Origin: an uncultured Blastochloridaceae bacterium
Lineage (GTDB): Bacteria; Verrucomicrobiota; Verrucomicrobiia; Methylacidiphilales; JBCBYL01
Reading direction: 5' to 3'
NCBI GenBank assembly: GCA_964351865.1
Contig: CAYGPJ010000008.1
Location: forward strand, 34,853-98,852
DNA: 64,000 nucleotides
Positions within the stretch are counted from its first letter, which is position 1; each line of letters starts with the position of its first letter. Below are positions 1,859 through 62,919 of this stretch, piece by piece. Below the pieces are notes generated by a model. The model did not search any database and had not been told where the DNA came from. It saw nothing but the letters and a program-made list of their open reading frames with translations. A program made the translations under genes and the position numbers.

Positions 1859-2692
1859 TCAGAATAAAACCTGATCGCCAACTTGAATTTCACCTTTTGA
1901 CCATTCAGGCAGGATGTCAGCGATGGCGGTTTCCGCATCGACGGAGACCGTGCGAACCTTGCCGACGAGAGAATCACCACGATAGACAGTCAAATCTACA
2001 CCTTCAACCAGTTGGTTCTGTTCACCTACATCCAGCACGACGAAGTTCCATGCTTTGTTGAGGGCGACCACTTTGCCGCTGAGTTCGAGTGGTGCGGCTT
2101 TAGCTTCACGCAGGCGGTCCAGTTTTTTGAAATCTTCAACCTGTGCGGTTCGCTGCATCAAGGTATCTTCGATCAGCTTCTTCTCAGATTCGAGCACTTC
2201 CAGTTTTTCTTTTACTTGAGAAGTTTCGGCCAAGACGGTGGCCAGATCACGACCTCCCAATTGGTCTTTTACTTTGGCCAGTTCTTCGGAAGAGTTCTTG
2301 AGTTCTTCTTGGGCTTGAGTCAGCGCCGAGGATTTTTCTTCCAATGATTTTTTGGTGGAAGTGACTTCAGTGGTGAGTTGAGAAACTTTGGCTTGAGCAT
2401 CGGAGAGGCCGGTTTTGGCTTCGGCCAATGAAGCGTTCGCCGTGTTCAGTTCTTCAACGGTCTTGGAGTAGGTTTCGTTGGCTTTTTTAATCGAGGCTGC
2501 TGGTTCAGCAGGGTTGGTTAAGAAACTGCCATTGTATTTGACGGCGGAATCCTGAGAGCGCAGGGAGGTTTCTACTTGAGCCAGTTGATCGGCGTATCCC
2601 GATTTCTTCTGAGCTAAAAAGAATCCGCCTCCAGCGGAAGCTAGCGACCCCAAGATCGCTAATACAACAAATGCTTTTCCAATGCCTGACAT
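1859..2692 (-). CDS. membrane-anchored coiled-coil protein with a conserved C-terminal beta-rich domain (hypothetical)
   Basis: 277 aa. It has an N-terminal hydrophobic helix (AFVVLAILGSLASAGGGFFLA) and about 170 aa of heptad-rich, E/K/L/Q/S-rich sequence. The C-terminal 74 aa align without gaps to the C-terminus of ORF 36733-37461. Confidence 0.7.
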   Translation of the reverse strand: MSGIGKAFVVLAILGSLASAGGGFFLAQKKSGYADQLAQVETSLRSQDSAVKYNGSFLTNPAEPAASIKKANETYSKTVEELNTANASLAEAKTGLSDAQAKVSQLTTEVTSTKKSLEEKSSALTQAQEELKNSSEELAKVKDQLGGRDLATVLAETSQVKEKLEVLESEKKLIEDTLMQRTAQVEDFKKLDRLREAKAAPLELSGKVVALNKAWNFVVLDVGEQNQLVEGVDLTVYRGDSLVGKVRTVSVDAETAIADILPEWSKGEIQVGDQVLF

Positions 2693-2767: not shown

Positions 2768-3217
2768 TTACCATTGAGACTTCTTTTTGACCTCATTCAG
2801 CGTCTGCCTAAACTCAGTATCAGTGTTGCTAATTTCACTGAAAAGCCACTCTGGGGAGAGGCAAAGGGCGCCTAATGATTCGACGGTTTGTTGCTCTGCC
2901 CGGTCAGAAGTCACCACGGTAATACGGGAGGGGTGGCGGTTTTGAGCGACGATTTTTTCGATAATGCTGTCGGCGGTAGTTTCCTTGGTGCTGTAGAGGA
3001 TGGCGATTTTGCCTGGCTCCGGCGGTTGTGGAGTGCCGTGTTTTCCGTCATAGACCAGTGTGATCAACCACTCTGAAGTATCCTGAAAATTCTGCAGCAG
3101 TTGGCTGAGCCGTTCACGCGCCAGCGATTGGTTGGCCTGGTGCATTTGGCGCCATTCGTCGACCTGGAACAATACACTGTGCCCATCGACGAGCAGATAT
3201 TTTATGGACTGCGACAT
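2768..3217 (-). CDS. NYN-domain YacP/Rae1-like predicted ribonuclease
   Basis: 149 aa. It shows N-terminal YLLVDGHSVLF, then ETTADSIIEKIV and ITVVTSDRAEQ, matching the YacP pattern (LVDGYN ... ETADxxIE ... TSDxxEQ). Confidence 0.65.
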   Translation of the reverse strand: MSQSIKYLLVDGHSVLFQVDEWRQMHQANQSLARERLSQLLQNFQDTSEWLITLVYDGKHGTPQPPEPGKIAILYSTKETTADSIIEKIVAQNRHPSRITVVTSDRAEQQTVESLGALCLSPEWLFSEISNTDTEFRQTLNEVKKKSQW

Positions 3218-36447: not shown

Positions 36448-36726
36448 ATGCCTCGTAGTTTGAAAAAAGGACCGTTCGTCGATTACCATTTGCAGGAAAA
36501 AATCGACAAAGCGAATAATGAAGGAAGCAAGAAGCCAATTAAAACCTGGTCTCGGCGCTCGATGATTACCCCTGAATTTGTAGGACATACCTTCATGGTT
36601 CATGGTGGAAAAACTTTTAATTCCGTTTTTGTAACAGAAAACATGGTGGGACATCGCCTCGGAGAATTTTCTCCAACCCGTATCTTCAGACGGCATGGTG
36701 GTCACACTGAAAAAGCTGGCAAGTAA
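36448..36726 (+). CDS. rpsS: 30S ribosomal protein S19
   Basis: 92 aa. [12 protein letters not shown]...[10 protein letters not shown]...[11 protein letters not shown]. Confidence 0.97.
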
Positions 36727-36732
36727 CCGGCG

Positions 36733-37461
36733 ATGATGAAGCCTGCAGGAAGAGTAGGCATTGTGGGGATGATCATGCTGAGCATGGTGCTTCCCCGCCT
36801 CGAAGCGAAAAATGCTTCGAGTAGATCTTTAACAGACGATAGTGAGAGAGTAGCCGATCTGAAAAATCAGATTAGCAGACTCGAAGAAAGTTTGGCACTG
36901 GCCAATACTGAAGCGGATTACTTCCACAAGAAGTGGCTGGAGCTTCGGTTGAAAGTCGAGGCGCTGGGAATTGAGGCTCTGACGGCCAATGAAAAAAGCC
37001 TGGAGGAGAAAAACATTCGCTTGCTCGGAGAATTGTTCCGGAGTGAAAAAAACAAGATGAGCCTGGAGAAGGCGATTACGGATTATCTGGAGGCAGACGA
37101 GGCTTTTAAACAAGCTCGACCGATGGAAACAGCTAAATTCCGAGCCGAACTTGAAGGGGCGCGCCGCACGTTGTTAACGCTTTTATATGGTAAAAGTGGA
37201 GACATCAGCATCGCTGCCAACTTGAACGAAGGTCAGGTGACCATCTTCGATGAACAGACTCAGATCGCTATTGTAAATTTTGGAAAAGCACAGGGGGCTA
37301 TGGTGGGAACTCCTTTCAGAATACTGGAAGAGAATGAAGTCATTGGCCGTTGCCGGTTGATTGAGGTGAGAGAATACCTCAGCGCCGCCCTGGTAGAAGA
37401 TTTGGTTAAAAATAAAACAGTGCAACCGGGAAACCGGTTGCTTATGGACACAGTGAAATAA
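36733..37461 (+). CDS. non-ribosomal secreted/membrane-anchored coiled-coil protein embedded in the S10 operon (hypothetical)
   Basis: 242 aa. It has an N-terminal signal/anchor (MMKPAGRVGIVGMIMLSMVLPRLEA) and about 140 aa of heptad-rich sequence. Its C-terminal 74-aa domain aligns without gaps to the C-terminus of ORF 1859-2692. It sits 6 nt after the rpsS stop and 6 nt before the rplV start. Confidence 0.75.
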   Translation: MMKPAGRVGIVGMIMLSMVLPRLEAKNASSRSLTDDSERVADLKNQISRLEESLALANTEADYFHKKWLELRLKVEALGIEALTANEKSLEEKNIRLLGELFRSEKNKMSLEKAITDYLEADEAFKQARPMETAKFRAELEGARRTLLTLLYGKSGDISIAANLNEGQVTIFDEQTQIAIVNFGKAQGAMVGTPFRILEENEVIGRCRLIEVREYLSAALVEDLVKNKTVQPGNRLLMDTVK

Positions 37462-37467
37462 AAAGTT

Positions 37468-37923
37468 ATGGCAGTAAAAGCAGTCACAAAATATACGCGT
37501 ATGTCCGCCTTCAAGGCGCGGAACGTCGCACGACATATCCAGGGCAGACCCGCATTGGACGCGCTGGAATTATTAGAATTTTATCCGCAGAAAGCGGCTA
37601 GACTCATCAGCAAAACGCTGAAGAGCGCTATCGCTAATGCGGAAAATAACGATGCGTTAGATCCCGCTACCTTGATCGTCAAGGAAGCGACGATCGGAGA
37701 AGGCCCGACCTTCAAGCGTTTCCGCCCGAAAGCGCGTGGATCTGCTGGACCGATCCGCAAGCGCACCAGCCATATTCGCATCATTTTGGACGAACGTGCC
37801 GAAGCGCCTGAAGCGCCTAAAAAGAAAACTGCTAAGAAGGCAGCTAAAACAGCGGCTAAGAAAACAGCGGCTAAAAAGTCAGCTAAGAAAGCTGCTGAGA
37901 AAACAACGGACAAAGAAAGTTAA
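37468..37923 (+). CDS. rplV: 50S ribosomal protein L22 with a Lys/Ala-rich C-terminal tail
   Basis: 151 aa. The L22 core is KARNVARHIQGRPALDALELLEF...GPTFKRFRPKARGSAGPIRKRTSHI. The tail is APKKKTAKKAAKTAAKKTAAKKSAKKAAEKTTDKES. Confidence 0.95.
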   Translation: MAVKAVTKYTRMSAFKARNVARHIQGRPALDALELLEFYPQKAARLISKTLKSAIANAENNDALDPATLIVKEATIGEGPTFKRFRPKARGSAGPIRKRTSHIRIILDERAEAPEAPKKKTAKKAAKTAAKKTAAKKSAKKAAEKTTDKES

Positions 37924-58585: not shown

Positions 58586-59755
58586 ATGGGGCACGAATAC
58601 TATCTGGTAGCTGGAGAGCCAAGTGGAGACCGTCACGCGGCGGCCTTGGCGCGTGCGTTGCGGCAGGCGGATCCTGATGCGGTTGTATCCGGCGTGGGCG
58701 GTAGGCATCTGCGGGCCGCTGGGCAGCAACAACTCTTTGATCTGGCCGCGCATGCCGTGGTCGGGCTGGTAGATGTGATCAGAAACTACGCCGCATTCCG
58801 GCGGATGTTTTATCAGGTGCTGGCCGATGTGGCACAACGTCAGCCGGACGTGGTGGTGCTGATTGATTTCCCCGGCTTTAATCTGCGGCTGGCAAAACAA
58901 CTGCGTAAACGTCATCCGGACATTAAGCTGGTTTACTACATCGCTCCACAGGTGTGGGCATGGAAAAGTGGCCGTGCAAAACAGATGGAGCAATTGCTGG
59001 ATTTGCTGTTGGTGATCTTTCCTTTTGAGCAGAAATGGTTTGAGCTGAATGCCCCTGAACTACCCGTCCAGTGGGTCGGGCATCCGACGCTGGATGAGTG
59101 GGATCAGTCCACCATGGTGGAGTGGGAAAAACGTGATCCCGTGCTCATCCTGCTGCCCGGCAGCCGGCAGCGTGAGATCGAAGCGCATCTGCCGGTTTTT
59201 CTGGAAGGGGTGAAACAACTGCATCCACTGCATCCGGATTTGAAATTTGTGCTGCTGACGCCTGACAGTCAAAAGGCGGAATGGATGAAAAAGAAAATTC
59301 AGCAAACGGAGGGCGTGCCTCCGATTGCGGTGGAAGACGGCTACCATCTGACGCGACTCAGTCACGCGCGACTGGCTTGGGTCGCCTCCGGAACCGCTAC
59401 GCTGGAATGTGCGATGGCCGGATTGCCGATGCTGGTGATTTACAAAACACAGCCACTGACCTGGTGGGTCGGGCGTCAGCTGGTGAAACTCAAATGGCTA
59501 TCGATGGTCAATGTGGTTGCCGGGGAGAAATTAGTCGCTGAATTTCTGCAAAATGATGCCACCCCGGAAGTTTTCAAGGAAGCCTCCATCAAGCTGCTGG
59601 GCTCTGAAGCCGGGCTGTACCGACTGCATCAGGACCTGACGGAGCTGACGGCGCCATTGGCAGGCAATGGCGCTTCGACTCAGGCGGCCTCAGCTATTTC
59701 AGCTTTGCTTGCTGGATCCGGAGCCGGATCCGCCAGCACTGCCGCGTCCGACTAA
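58586..59755 (+). CDS. lpxB: lipid-A-disaccharide synthase
   Basis: 389 aa. The N-terminal YLVAGEPSGDRHAAALARAL, VDFPGFNLRLAKQLRK and SGTATLECAMAGLPMLVIYK are present. Confidence 0.88.
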   Translation: MGHEYYLVAGEPSGDRHAAALARALRQADPDAVVSGVGGRHLRAAGQQQLFDLAAHAVVGLVDVIRNYAAFRRMFYQVLADVAQRQPDVVVLIDFPGFNLRLAKQLRKRHPDIKLVYYIAPQVWAWKSGRAKQMEQLLDLLLVIFPFEQKWFELNAPELPVQWVGHPTLDEWDQSTMVEWEKRDPVLILLPGSRQREIEAHLPVFLEGVKQLHPLHPDLKFVLLTPDSQKAEWMKKKIQQTEGVPPIAVEDGYHLTRLSHARLAWVASGTATLECAMAGLPMLVIYKTQPLTWWVGRQLVKLKWLSMVNVVAGEKLVAEFLQNDATPEVFKEASIKLLGSEAGLYRLHQDLTELTAPLAGNGASTQAASAISALLAGSGAGSASTAASD

Positions 59756-60229
59756 AAATCCGACCACGGCCAGAATGATTGCCAGTATCCAGGGTAACCA
59801 GACCATCGCTGAGGGATCTTCGGCTGCGGGGGCTTCTACCTCCGCAGGATCCGGATCAGTCTCAGGTGTCTCGATGGCTGTGGTAGCGGTTGTCAGTTGT
59901 CCCTGCAGGGAGGCGATTTCCGCTTTGGCGGCTTTGAGCTTTTCATTGAGTTTCTGTTGCTGACCTCTGAGTTTTTTAAGAGAATTTTCGAGTTTATTGA
60001 TGCGGTTATCTTTTTTCTCGAGCGTGGCCTGATGTTTCTCAGTGAGTGCAGCGATCTTTTTATCGCAGTCTGACTCAGTGAAAGCAGCTAACTTGGTGGG
60101 GGTGGCGTCAGCGGTGGGAGGGGTAGGAACCGGGCCGCTTTTGTCGATCTTGTCGCCGGCAACTGCCAGCGGTGCGAGTAGAGTGATTCCGAGGAATACA
60201 GAGAGGACGAAGGGGGATAGTAACTTCAT
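59699..60229 (-). CDS. secreted coiled-coil protein with a C-terminal membrane anchor (hypothetical)
   Basis: 176 aa. Signal peptide MKLLSPFVLSVFLGITLLAPLAVA, a central coiled coil (LENSLKKLRGQQQKLNEKLKAAKAEIASLQGQL), and a C-terminal TM helix VWLPWILAIILAVVGFLVG. Its 3' end overlaps the lpxB 3' end by 57 nt. Confidence 0.55.
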   Translation of the reverse strand: MKLLSPFVLSVFLGITLLAPLAVAGDKIDKSGPVPTPPTADATPTKLAAFTESDCDKKIAALTEKHQATLEKKDNRINKLENSLKKLRGQQQKLNEKLKAAKAEIASLQGQLTTATTAIETPETDPDPAEVEAPAAEDPSAMVWLPWILAIILAVVGFLVGRGSAGGSGSGSSKQS

Positions 60230-61502: not shown

Positions 61503-61593
61503 GATTTTTTTTTAAGGGTTGTCGCAGGCTTGGCAAGCTTCGAGTCTGGGATTGTTTTTAGCTGAAACGGCGGGTAGCCTGTTCGTTCAATCC

Positions 61594-62919
61594 ATGAAAG
61601 CAGTAATCGCACTCATCGTCTTCACCCTCAGCGGGCTGGTACTTCTGCCGGCTGCTGCGGTGACGGAGAAAAACGACGTGGTGCGGGTGTACCGGTTGCA
61701 AAGCGACCGCTTCCCGATTGAAGTGACCAGTCGGGATGGTGGGATGAATCGCTGGCTGCTGGATGTGACCGAAGATGCGCTGCGTGATTTTACCCGCACG
61801 CTGGAGCTTGATGAGCTTCCCTTTTCTCAATTAAATATTCGCTGGCGTCCGGGCAATGCGGAAGGGCAGCTGTCTTTTCCGCGGTCGGTGATACTGCAAG
61901 CGGGCATGCCGGAGGTGGATATTGATTTTACCGGAGCTAATCGCGCACAAACCGTGGCCATCAAGCGCACCCTGATGGTGGCGTGGTTGCAGGCGCATAT
62001 CTGGCAAGGGGAGGATGCGATACTGACAGGAATCCTGCCGGAACCTCCACTCTGGCTCAGTGAGGGATTGCTGTGGGAATCGGAACGTTATCAGCATGAT
62101 GAGTGGAGTCAGGTAGTGAACAAAGCCTCACGCAACGGAATCGTGCCCTCTTTGCAAACGATCCAAGGCTGGAGTGAACTTTCAGATCTGACACTGGAGC
62201 GGATGTGGCAGCAGGCCTTCAGTTATTGCCTGACTCGCAAGGCCCTGCAGAGCGCCAGTGAGAAAGCAGCTGTGCTCTACTGGCTGAAAAAGCATCAAAA
62301 ACACGCGGCAACCGCTTTCTGGGAAAACTCACCGGAGGTGGAAGGCTGGTGGCAGGAAGTGGCTGCCAGGCCGATGCAGAAAAAAATTCCGATCCTGACC
62401 TGGGATCAGACGGTGGCTAAGCTGAATGAACTGCGACACCTTTCCTTGCGGTTGGCGGATGGTGAGCGCAAAATGTTTTTCATTGAGAATCTGCCGGCAG
62501 CCATCGAGTTGGATCCGAGCGATGCGTCGATGAATGAATACGTTAGACAGATGGACCTGTTAGCACTCTCCGCGCACTACGCATTGAACCCCGCGATCAT
62601 TCGCTATCGGAATGCACTCGAGCTCTGGCGACCGCGGGCACAGAAAAAAAAGAAGGAGCAGGAAAAGGATTATCAACAGTATCAGGAACTGGTGCAGGAG
62701 GCGCGACAATGGGAAGATTGGGCCACGACCCGTAAGCAGGCCGCTAAGGATGCGCTCGACTGGTCGGTGGTGAACCTCGACGTGAATCAACTTGCGGTTG
62801 ATGAGGATGGCAGCGTGAGTGGCAGCGGCTTGACCGATTATGCCGTGGTGGTGCGCCAGTTGGAAAATGAAAGGTTGCGGGTGAGAAGAAAATTTCAAAA
62901 GGAGATATTTGCAAAATGA
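61594..62919 (+). CDS. hypothetical secreted protein
   Basis: 441 aa from ATG 61594 (MKAVIALIVFTLSGLVLLPAAAV is a signal peptide). No motif was recognised. The C-terminal part is charged (KKKKEQEKDYQQYQELVQEARQWEDW). Confidence 0.55.
   Translation: MKAVIALIVFTLSGLVLLPAAAVTEKNDVVRVYRLQSDRFPIEVTSRDGGMNRWLLDVTEDALRDFTRTLELDELPFSQLNIRWRPGNAEGQLSFPRSVILQAGMPEVDIDFTGANRAQTVAIKRTLMVAWLQAHIWQGEDAILTGILPEPPLWLSEGLLWESERYQHDEWSQVVNKASRNGIVPSLQTIQGWSELSDLTLERMWQQAFSYCLTRKALQSASEKAAVLYWLKKHQKHAATAFWENSPEVEGWWQEVAARPMQKKIPILTWDQTVAKLNELRHLSLRLADGERKMFFIENLPAAIELDPSDASMNEYVRQMDLLALSAHYALNPAIIRYRNALELWRPRAQKKKKEQEKDYQQYQELVQEARQWEDWATTRKQAAKDALDWSVVNLDVNQLAVDEDGSVSGSGLTDYAVVVRQLENERLRVRRKFQKEIFAK

Follow-up and report, generated by a model that had tools for sequence, protein, structure and literature searches.

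The S10 operon is among the most conserved gene strings of bacteria, and a passenger gene fixed inside it throughout a phylum is unusual; to our knowledge, the operon normally carries no gene of this kind. The stretch of DNA analysed here (hereafter the window; 64,000 nucleotides (nt) of contig CAYGPJ010000008.1, assembly GCA_964351865.1) contains a 242-codon open reading frame (ORF) inserted between rpsS and rplV, which raises the question of what this gene encodes, how long it has been there and what its position may mean. A preliminary description of the window had placed the ORF 6 nt after the rpsS stop and 6 nt before the rplV start of an otherwise intact S10 operon, and had proposed an exported, non-ribosomal product with about 140 heptad-rich residues, a composition and codon style like those of the neighbouring genes, an insertion that is not recent, and expression in step with ribosome synthesis. 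It had also proposed looking for the gene in relatives, estimating the ratio of nonsynonymous to synonymous substitution rates (dN/dS), and comparing the protein with known profiles and folds. As a whole, this interpretation is partly supported. The ORF founds an uncharacterised protein family, evolves under purifying selection and holds the same slot in all related loci found; the periplasmic and non-ribosomal identity of its product is fairly secure, and the meaning of its S10 location is less secure than that identity.

A family gene in the rpsS-rplV slot

The ORF and its immediate surroundings are as follows.

36733..37461, + strand: inserted ORF ('orfX'), ATG start, 242 amino acids (aa), between rpsS and rplV; founding family member
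36448..36726, + strand: rpsS (ribosomal protein S19), upstream neighbour, from the ORF list (Pfam Ribosomal_S19, 2e-36)
37468..37923, + strand: rplV (ribosomal protein L22), downstream neighbour, from the ORF list (Pfam Ribosomal_L22, 1e-36)
36727..36732, + strand: rpsS-ORF junction, 6 nt (CCGGCG), from the sequence; without promoter or terminator in the scan, anti-Shine-Dalgarno duplex weak
37462..37467, + strand: ORF-rplV junction, 6 nt (AAAGTT), from the sequence; without + strand terminator or promoter in the scan

The coordinates 36726/36733/37461/37468 agree with the spacing given in the preliminary description, and the gene order rpsJ-rplC-rplD-rplW-rplB-rpsS-(ORF)-rplV-rpsC-rplP-rpmC-rpsQ, read from the ORF list and in agreement with the Pfam labels of homologous loci, is likewise intact apart from the insert. 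Single-sequence searches of Pfam, NCBIfam and PDB sequences with the inserted ORF returned nothing significant, and profile searches did not place it in any characterised family. A word-indexed search, on the other hand, yielded 40 homologues of 220-270 aa and 100% to 37% identity, all of them annotated as hypothetical and originating from Verrucomicrobiota or from metagenome-assembled genomes (MAGs) of Methylacidiphilales. An exhaustive phmmer search of 1.84 billion cluster representatives extended the family to 289 clusters, defined at 50% identity, with E<=1e-3; of these, 134 reach E<=1e-10, and almost every alignment runs the full length. The ORF is thus the founder of an uncharacterised family for which neither Pfam nor NCBIfam offers a model. 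Terrimicrobium, Chthoniobacteraceae, Verrucomicrobiales, Verrucomicrobiae/-iia and Methylacidiphilales appear among the source names, and one distant member carries the NCBI name 'rod shape-determining protein MreC'.

The slot between rpsS and rplV is occupied by a family gene in 83/83 related loci, with members down to ~24% identity, so that the survey of relatives bore out the conservation of the insert. Among 76 loci recovered by genome and metagenome scans (the genome scan with the closer alignment reached 9 genome loci), both flanks are visible in 55 and one flank in 21, and wherever a flank is visible, it is rpsS on the upstream side and rplV on the downstream side, in the same orientation. 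All six looked-up members at 24-54% identity also sit between rpsS and rplV. An unbiased sample was provided by six contigs picked via their S19 protein and not via the ORF; in 6/6 of them, rpsS is followed by a Pfam-less ORF that matches the family hidden Markov model (HMM) with E 1e-20 to 1e-91. Intergenic gaps in the close clade measure 1-11 nt. In Chlamydia, rpsS and rplV are presumably adjacent. Our literature search for an insertion between rpsS and rplV, or in the S10 operon, of Verrucomicrobia found no prior description. The published signature protein of the Planctomycetes-Verrucomicrobia-Chlamydiae (PVC) group is CT421.2, which is small and unrelated and hence not the inserted ORF. 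A phage or defence origin was also considered and rejected, as PADLOC and PHROGs models gave only coiled-coil noise at E>=0.005.

Selection on the gene was estimated from pairs of loci. Against the closest one (L006), dN/dS is 0.155 at dS 0.78, and other pairs give 0.15-0.28, far from the value near 1 that would mark a sequence free of constraint; rplB, rpsS, rpsC and rplV reach 0.02-0.05 in the same analysis. The inserted gene is therefore under purifying selection, and a chance ORF is ruled out by its 40 close homologues, by the 289 clusters of distant ones and by a dN/dS of 0.15-0.2. Loci in which the ORF is more similar to the window copy also tend to have more similar rplB, rpsS, rplV and rpsC (Spearman correlation of identities 0.56-0.68, p<=2e-5, 47-63 loci), and the GC content of the ORF and its GC content at third codon positions (GC3) are like those of its neighbours. 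This composition match and the co-divergence with ribosomal proteins rule out a recent horizontal insertion, as the preliminary description had argued from composition, and show that the insertion is ancient and vertically inherited.

Several loci deserve a separate mention. In L016 (ENA ERZ926533 contig, 126 kb) the S10 operon is interrupted upstream: queA (Queuosine_synth) lies directly before rplD and rpsJ-rplC are missing from that position, with the insert still located between rpsS and rplV. The family is recognisable in L076 (2264 nt) over 59 residues only (aa 54-112), again between the two genes, and ~300 nt remain before rplV; this copy may be frameshifted or decaying, or may reflect an assembly error. 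L008, L011 and L012 (labelled Blastochloris/Blastochloridaceae) and L081 (labelled Bdellovibrionaceae) are MAG contigs that carry the verrucomicrobial insert and encode an S19 76-84% identical to that of the window; their organism labels are probably wrong, or their bins contaminated. Note also that rpsS and the inserted ORF have a common reading frame in the window (36448-37461, + strand), with only TAA and CCG GCG between them. A read-through fusion of the two is probably not meaningful, because the length of the rpsS-ORF gap varies among loci (1-11 nt in the others). Finally, the L22 protein of the window has 151 aa and a Lys/Ala-rich, histone-H1-like C-terminal tail (...KKKTAKKAAKTAAKKTAAKKSAKKAAEK...), and L22 length ranges from 115 to 167 aa across related loci.

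Architecture of the predicted protein

Five segments can be distinguished in the protein; confidence in the AlphaFold2 model is given as the predicted local distance difference test score (pLDDT).

36733..36807, + strand: predicted Sec signal peptide, aa 1-25, MMKPAGRVGIVGMIMLSMVLPRLEA (heuristic; likely cleavage after LEA; AlphaFold2 pLDDT <50)
36826..36837, + strand: S-L-T-D motif, aa 32-35 (alignment; S32 invariant in the close clade)
36850..36987, + strand: canonical coiled coil, aa 40-85 (heptad test, conservation, AlphaFold2 helix with pLDDT ~90)
36988..37188, + strand: further alpha-helical region, aa 86-152, without regular heptads (AlphaFold2 helices; heptad test not significant)
37228..37452, + strand: C-terminal six-stranded beta-barrel, aa 166-240, of the FlgT-C/TsaP/MreC/ATPase-crown type (AlphaFold2, Foldseek, weak profile matches)

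The N-terminus of the window protein reaches a Kyte-Doolittle hydropathy of 2.68 over 11 residues, with two basic residues ahead. Across the family, 148/187 full-length members have a hydrophobic core of Kyte-Doolittle >=1.8, typically after 1-3 basic residues and with an AxA-like end, and a lipobox is found in only 5/187. These features predict a Sec signal peptide cut by signal peptidase I at about A25/K26 and, being present in most of the 187 members, agree with the hydrophobic export segment first described. The window also encodes LpxB and a family-9 heptosyltransferase, indicating that the organism has lipopolysaccharide and a periplasm. Just downstream of the predicted cleavage site, the S-L-T-D motif occurs in its strict form in 59/187 members, against 7.6 expected.

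The heptad register is constant over aa 40-85, where the a/d positions are 100% hydrophobic (p<0.0005), and no other block of the family is as conserved as this segment (L54, E60, F64, W68, L71, E76-A77-L78-G79, A82 and T84). A Fourier heptad test over the whole helical region was negative, and only local windows covering aa 40-85 were significant. The claim of about 140 heptad-rich residues thus stands for ~45 of them, the remainder (aa 86-152) being helical but without heptads. The AlphaFold2 model, built on a 38-sequence alignment, contains helices at 33-126 and 133-152 followed by a six-stranded beta domain at 168-238 (mean pLDDT 81); modelled alone, the barrel retains six strands with a pLDDT of 92.8 and a predicted template modelling score (pTM) of 0.83. 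Foldseek searches with the full model place FlgT first (E 2e-4), followed by the N-terminal crown barrels of F1, V1 and type III secretion ATPases. With the barrel alone, FlgT again gives the highest template modelling score (TM 0.69; 3w1e, 90 columns), ahead of V-ATPase crowns (~0.62), TsaP (0.60) and MreC (0.45-0.49).

Profile searches point in similar directions. Weak Pfam FlgT_C matches are obtained for 13/59 members (best E 7.5e-5), and weak MreC matches for 1/59 with Pfam PF04085 (E 1.8e-4) and 3/59 with NCBIfam (E 1.8e-3); the window protein itself gives none of either kind. TsaP is the only PDB sequence match of the barrel profile (E 0.005-0.015), with which it has the motifs G..GV..G / ..VxEV....S / GDR in common. 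A profile match to Gfh1 (E=0.0024) had suggested a Gfh1/GreA likeness, which was rejected since the alignment covers only the helix/coiled coil and the linker and thus reflects coiled-coil bias.

The mature protein has an isoelectric point (pI) of 5.4 (family median 5.6), compared with >10 for the neighbouring gene products. The inserted protein is not ribosomal, as had been proposed, because the mature chain is acidic; in addition, neither Pfam nor NCBIfam gives a ribosomal match, and the predicted signal peptide is likewise out of character for a basic, RNA-binding ribosomal protein.

The window contains a distant paralogue of the gene outside the operon.

1859..2692, - strand: distant paralogue, 277 aa (family HMM E=2.8e-17; BLASTP to the ORF over the barrel only, E=0.045)

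In this protein, a membrane anchor at the N-terminus is followed by a coiled coil of ~170 residues, and the barrel motif of the inserted ORF is found again at the C-terminus. A YacP-like NYN domain gene (2768-3217) precedes the paralogue, which has a high codon adaptation index (CAI) of 0.76. Since such a 277-aa protein with anchor, coiled coil and barrel exists, the S10-embedded gene would be one orthologous branch of a wider group that combines an anchor or signal with a coiled coil and a small barrel. A 176-aa ORF (59699-60229, - strand) was considered as a further paralogue and rejected, as it matches the family HMM through its coiled coil only. The encoded protein combines a signal peptide with a coiled coil, for which TolA_bind_tri gives a weak match (E 6e-4), and carries a hydrophobic segment towards its C-terminus; the gene adjoins lpxB (58586-59755). 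A 466-aa ORF at 61519-62919 (+ strand), with an N-terminal hydrophobic segment and no Pfam match at E<=1e-5, is probably another uncharacterised exported protein.

Expression signals and the hairpin before rplV

No promoter-like or terminator-like site was detected on the + strand at either junction of the ORF, and the frequency of such sites in the region is no higher than in shuffled sequences; no Rfam element was found in the operon. We infer that the ORF is co-transcribed with the neighbouring ribosomal genes. Its translation is another matter. The anti-Shine-Dalgarno duplex before the ORF is weak (-3.5 kcal/mol), several genes of the operon reaching -6 to -11, and its CAI of 0.627, calculated with the ribosomal and translation genes of the window as reference set, lies below those of all 19 ribosomal/translation genes (0.64-0.81) and ranks close to last among the ordinary genes. 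The weak Shine-Dalgarno match and the lowest codon adaptation of the operon together suggest that translation of the ORF is much lower than that of its neighbours. Two earlier statements have to be narrowed here: the resemblance to the neighbouring genes extends to GC and GC3 but not to codon adaptation, and expression in step with ribosome synthesis would apply to the mRNA level at most.

The junction with rplV contains a further element, located inside the coding sequence.

37422..37441, + strand: hairpin in the 3' end of the ORF, GCAACCGG-GAAA-CCGGTTGC, 27 nt upstream of the rplV start (covariation)

This hairpin consists of a perfect 8-bp stem closed by a GAAA loop, falls within the last 40 nt of the ORF, and occupies equivalent codons in 15 distinct loci with tight junctions. 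Synonymous third bases of Arg/Leu codons in its 3' arm complement the first bases of two codons in its 5' arm: CGG accompanies Pro CCG (6/6), CGC accompanies Ala GCG or Val GTG (5/5), xTG accompanies Gln or Arg codons (10/10) and CTT accompanies Lys AAR (3/3). Paired cells amount to 91.7%, compared with 79.2 +/- 2.1 in shuffles (0/500) and 20-53% in slid controls, and four pairs are altered on both sides, in a sample that is small and composed of related sequences, which makes the covariation strong but not final. The motif is unique within the window, and the folding z-score of the ORF-rplV junction (-3.3) is the most negative among 18 operon junctions.

In a distant clade (L028-L067, L001, L015) the coding sequence lacks the stem, and the Arg codon remains CGG. 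The ORF-rplV spacer is here 58-152 nt long, A/G-rich and conserved near rplV, with an ...AAAATTTAAAACGAATTTGAGTTATG run ahead of that gene; its first element, immediately behind the stop codon, is often a GC-rich hairpin (GGTAGCCGnCG...CGnCGGTGCAG) with stem bases that swap between loci. The 3'-end hairpin thus recurs in two forms, inside the coding sequence or after the stop codon. Next to a poorly translated cistron, it may serve to insulate the initiation of rplV or to keep the mRNA stable. In L058, the spacer hairpin is present in two tandem copies, reminiscent of a small element of the repetitive extragenic palindromic (REP) type.

Possible roles and comparison with known systems

What, then, may the gene be doing in this operon? 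The reading we prefer, which we consider to have about an even chance of being correct, sees the product as a scaffold or spacer that is exported and oligomerises in the periplasm, its mRNA being contained in the S10 transcript and its translation set low. The product would be a Sec-exported, acidic periplasmic protein, the mature chain of which opens with the SLT(D/E) peptide after cleavage near A25/K26. Its 45-residue coiled coil most likely drives homo-oligomerisation. In FlgT, TsaP, MreC and periplasmic adaptor proteins, barrels of this type mediate protein-protein contacts and the periplasmic assembly of rings or scaffolds, and it is from this role that an oligomeric scaffold or spacer of the cell envelope is proposed. 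The ORF mRNA would be made within the ribosomal-protein transcript, because the ORF lacks its own promoter and terminator, and its supply should therefore follow the growth-rate control of ribosome synthesis, like that of secY in the spc operon. The weak ribosome-binding site and poor codon adaptation would then hold protein yield well below that of the neighbours, and the hairpin probably shields the translation of L22, or the stability of the mRNA, against effects of the poorly translated ORF.

A number of observations weigh against this reading. Signal peptides were assessed by heuristics and not by SignalP, a strong hydrophobic N-terminus is missing in 39/187 members (possibly owing to wrong start calls), and the SLT motif is present in only about one third of the family. 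Statistically, the structural matches of the barrel are not strong: Foldseek reaches E 2e-4 at best with the full model and 5e-3 with the isolated domain. The Pfam matches mentioned above are all below gathering cut-offs. As the same barrel fold also occurs in cytoplasmic ATPases, the fold alone is no proof of a periplasmic role. Low codon adaptation argues against a stoichiometric link to ribosomes, and the invariant slot can simply reflect the difficulty of removing or moving a gene within an essential operon.

This last point leads to a possible but less probable explanation, namely that an ordinary periplasmic protein, with a function unrelated to ribosome synthesis, was inserted in an early verrucomicrobial ancestor and has stayed only because a gene lacking its own promoter, within a tightly spaced and essential operon, can hardly be excised or relocated without harm. 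An expression that is not matched to the neighbours, as judged from codon adaptation and the Shine-Dalgarno match, would fit such a frozen accident, as would the 4-7 times faster evolution of the gene compared with its neighbours, the strong constraint on S10 gene order itself and the paralogue of the same architecture elsewhere in the genome. Yet deletion of a dispensable gene should be easy, and neither loss nor relocation was seen in the 83 loci, even at ~24% identity; the gene keeps its slot in L016, where the operon is broken upstream, and the selected hairpin at the ORF-rplV boundary points to a tuned arrangement. A divergent, single-barrel MreC-like component of the elongation machinery, scaffolding peptidoglycan synthases, appears improbable. 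The NCBI name of one distant member, the few MreC matches with Pfam (1/59) and NCBIfam (3/59), the Foldseek similarity to MreC barrels (TM 0.45-0.49, 19-20% identity) and the common plan of hydrophobic N-terminus, coiled coil and barrel speak for it; set against these are a 242-aa protein with one barrel instead of two, a short and cleavable-looking signal that is probably not a transmembrane anchor, model matches far under cut-offs with FlgT and TsaP fitting better, and a gene that never adjoins mreB or mreD.

The gene could also act mainly in cis, either by transertion, in which translation of a signal-peptide ORF would tether the S10 mRNA and the DNA under transcription to the membrane, or, together with the hairpin, by regulating translation or stability of the distal operon from rplV onward. 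The retention of the signal peptide even where the rest diverges, the selected hairpin upstream of rplV and the conserved A/G-rich spacers of other clades would be compatible with such a role, as would the ribosome-bearing internal membranes of PVC bacteria reported in one article (PMC4452313). However, a coiled coil and a barrel under purifying selection, with invariant residues, would be unexpected if only the signal or the RNA mattered, and a predominantly cis-acting gene is very improbable. We give slightly less credit still to a cytoplasmic ribosome- or translation-associated factor in which the hydrophobic stretch is not an export signal. The S10 location, the barrels of cytoplasmic rotary and type III secretion ATPases and the weak match to the coiled-coil transcription factor Gfh1 could be cited in its favour, but the signal features are family-wide (basic n-region, hydrophobic core of 10-20 residues, AxA-like end), the protein is acidic, unlike RNA-binding ribosomal proteins, the Gfh1 alignment covers only coiled coil and linker, and codon adaptation is low.

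Returning to the periplasmic scaffold, a stronger version can be formulated, in which the protein is a signature of Verrucomicrobiota: an essential, lineage-specific periplasmic assembly factor with a dosage hard-wired to ribosome synthesis, the hairpin or spacer uncoupling its low translation from that of L22. We regard this version as rather doubtful. If it were true, it would represent a second case after secY, independently evolved, of envelope biogenesis under the ribosomal-protein regulon, and would offer a new handle on growth-rate signalling to the envelope. If the protein were essential, it could also become a lineage-specific target or tool, for carriers of the gene, in a phylum that includes Akkermansia and many abundant soil and aquatic bacteria. 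The findings have a value of their own: the insert is a clean synapomorphy of Verrucomicrobiota, at least for the labelled lineages Methylacidiphilales, Chthoniobacteraceae/Terrimicrobium, Verrucomicrobiales and Verrucomicrobiia, and several hundred uncharacterised proteins, predicted to be exported, are now defined as a family for which no database model exists. The locus provides a testable natural case of the possible coupling of envelope-protein supply to the ribosomal regulon. In its covarying hairpin, which overlaps the coding sequence, RNA structure shapes synonymous codon choice, suggesting a way for one transcript to carry genes of very different protein output.

How does the protein compare with known systems? 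Its barrel is of a type described for FlgT, F1 beta and periplasmic adaptor proteins, for the TsaP ring and, in duplicate, for MreC. The best structural match is the C-domain of FlgT (Pfam FlgT_C, PF16538), a periplasmic ring-building protein of the Vibrio flagellar H-ring that likewise has a six-stranded barrel. Unlike FlgT, to which it is 7-13% identical, the inserted protein gives no PF16538 match above the gathering score, has no N- and M-domains, its N-terminal two thirds being helical or coiled coil, and is encoded in a ribosomal and not a flagellar neighbourhood. TsaP, the secretin-associated protein of type IV pili, is periplasmic as well, possesses FlgT-C-like barrels (Foldseek TM 0.60, 23% identity) and oligomerises as a ring around PilQ. 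It differs in having LysM, for which neither the window protein nor the 59 members gave a match, and two barrels without coiled coil, compared with one barrel and a conserved coiled coil in the inserted protein. The crown barrels of F1, V1 and type III secretion ATPases and the barrel of periplasmic adaptors have the same six-stranded topology and pack side by side into rings. This is a likeness of fold only (7-18% identity), in the absence of an ATPase, lipoyl or membrane-proximal domain; no HlyD/MFP family match was found in the 59 members, and the order of helices then barrel is unlike that of periplasmic adaptors.

The overall plan is of the same kind as that of MreC, a scaffold of envelope synthesis in which a hydrophobic segment at the N-terminus is followed by a coiled coil that dimerises and by a six-stranded periplasmic barrel, and a coiled coil preceding the barrel is indeed present at aa 40-85. 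The periplasmic part of MreC is, however, made of two consecutive six-stranded beta-barrel domains (PMC8804602), whereas the inserted protein has a single one (168-238). MreC is held by an uncleaved transmembrane anchor; in the inserted protein a hydrophobic core of only ~11-14 residues is followed by P-R-L-E-A, and the AxA-like ends of the family are typical of cleaved signals, which would set it apart from MreC. As regards gene position, the relevant comparison is with secY (and also adk, map, infA and rpoA) of the spc and alpha operons, which are likewise non-ribosomal genes fixed inside ribosomal-protein operons and co-transcribed with them; secY, itself a gene of envelope or secretion functions, also occurs in the window, in the spc operon that adjoins S10. 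The inserted gene resembles these passengers in its fixed slot on the same strand in 83/83 loci and in the lack of a promoter or terminator at its junctions, from which co-transcription would follow. Passengers of the secY type are near-universal in bacteria and have known functions, whereas the gene described here is seen only in Verrucomicrobiota and resides in the S10 operon proper.

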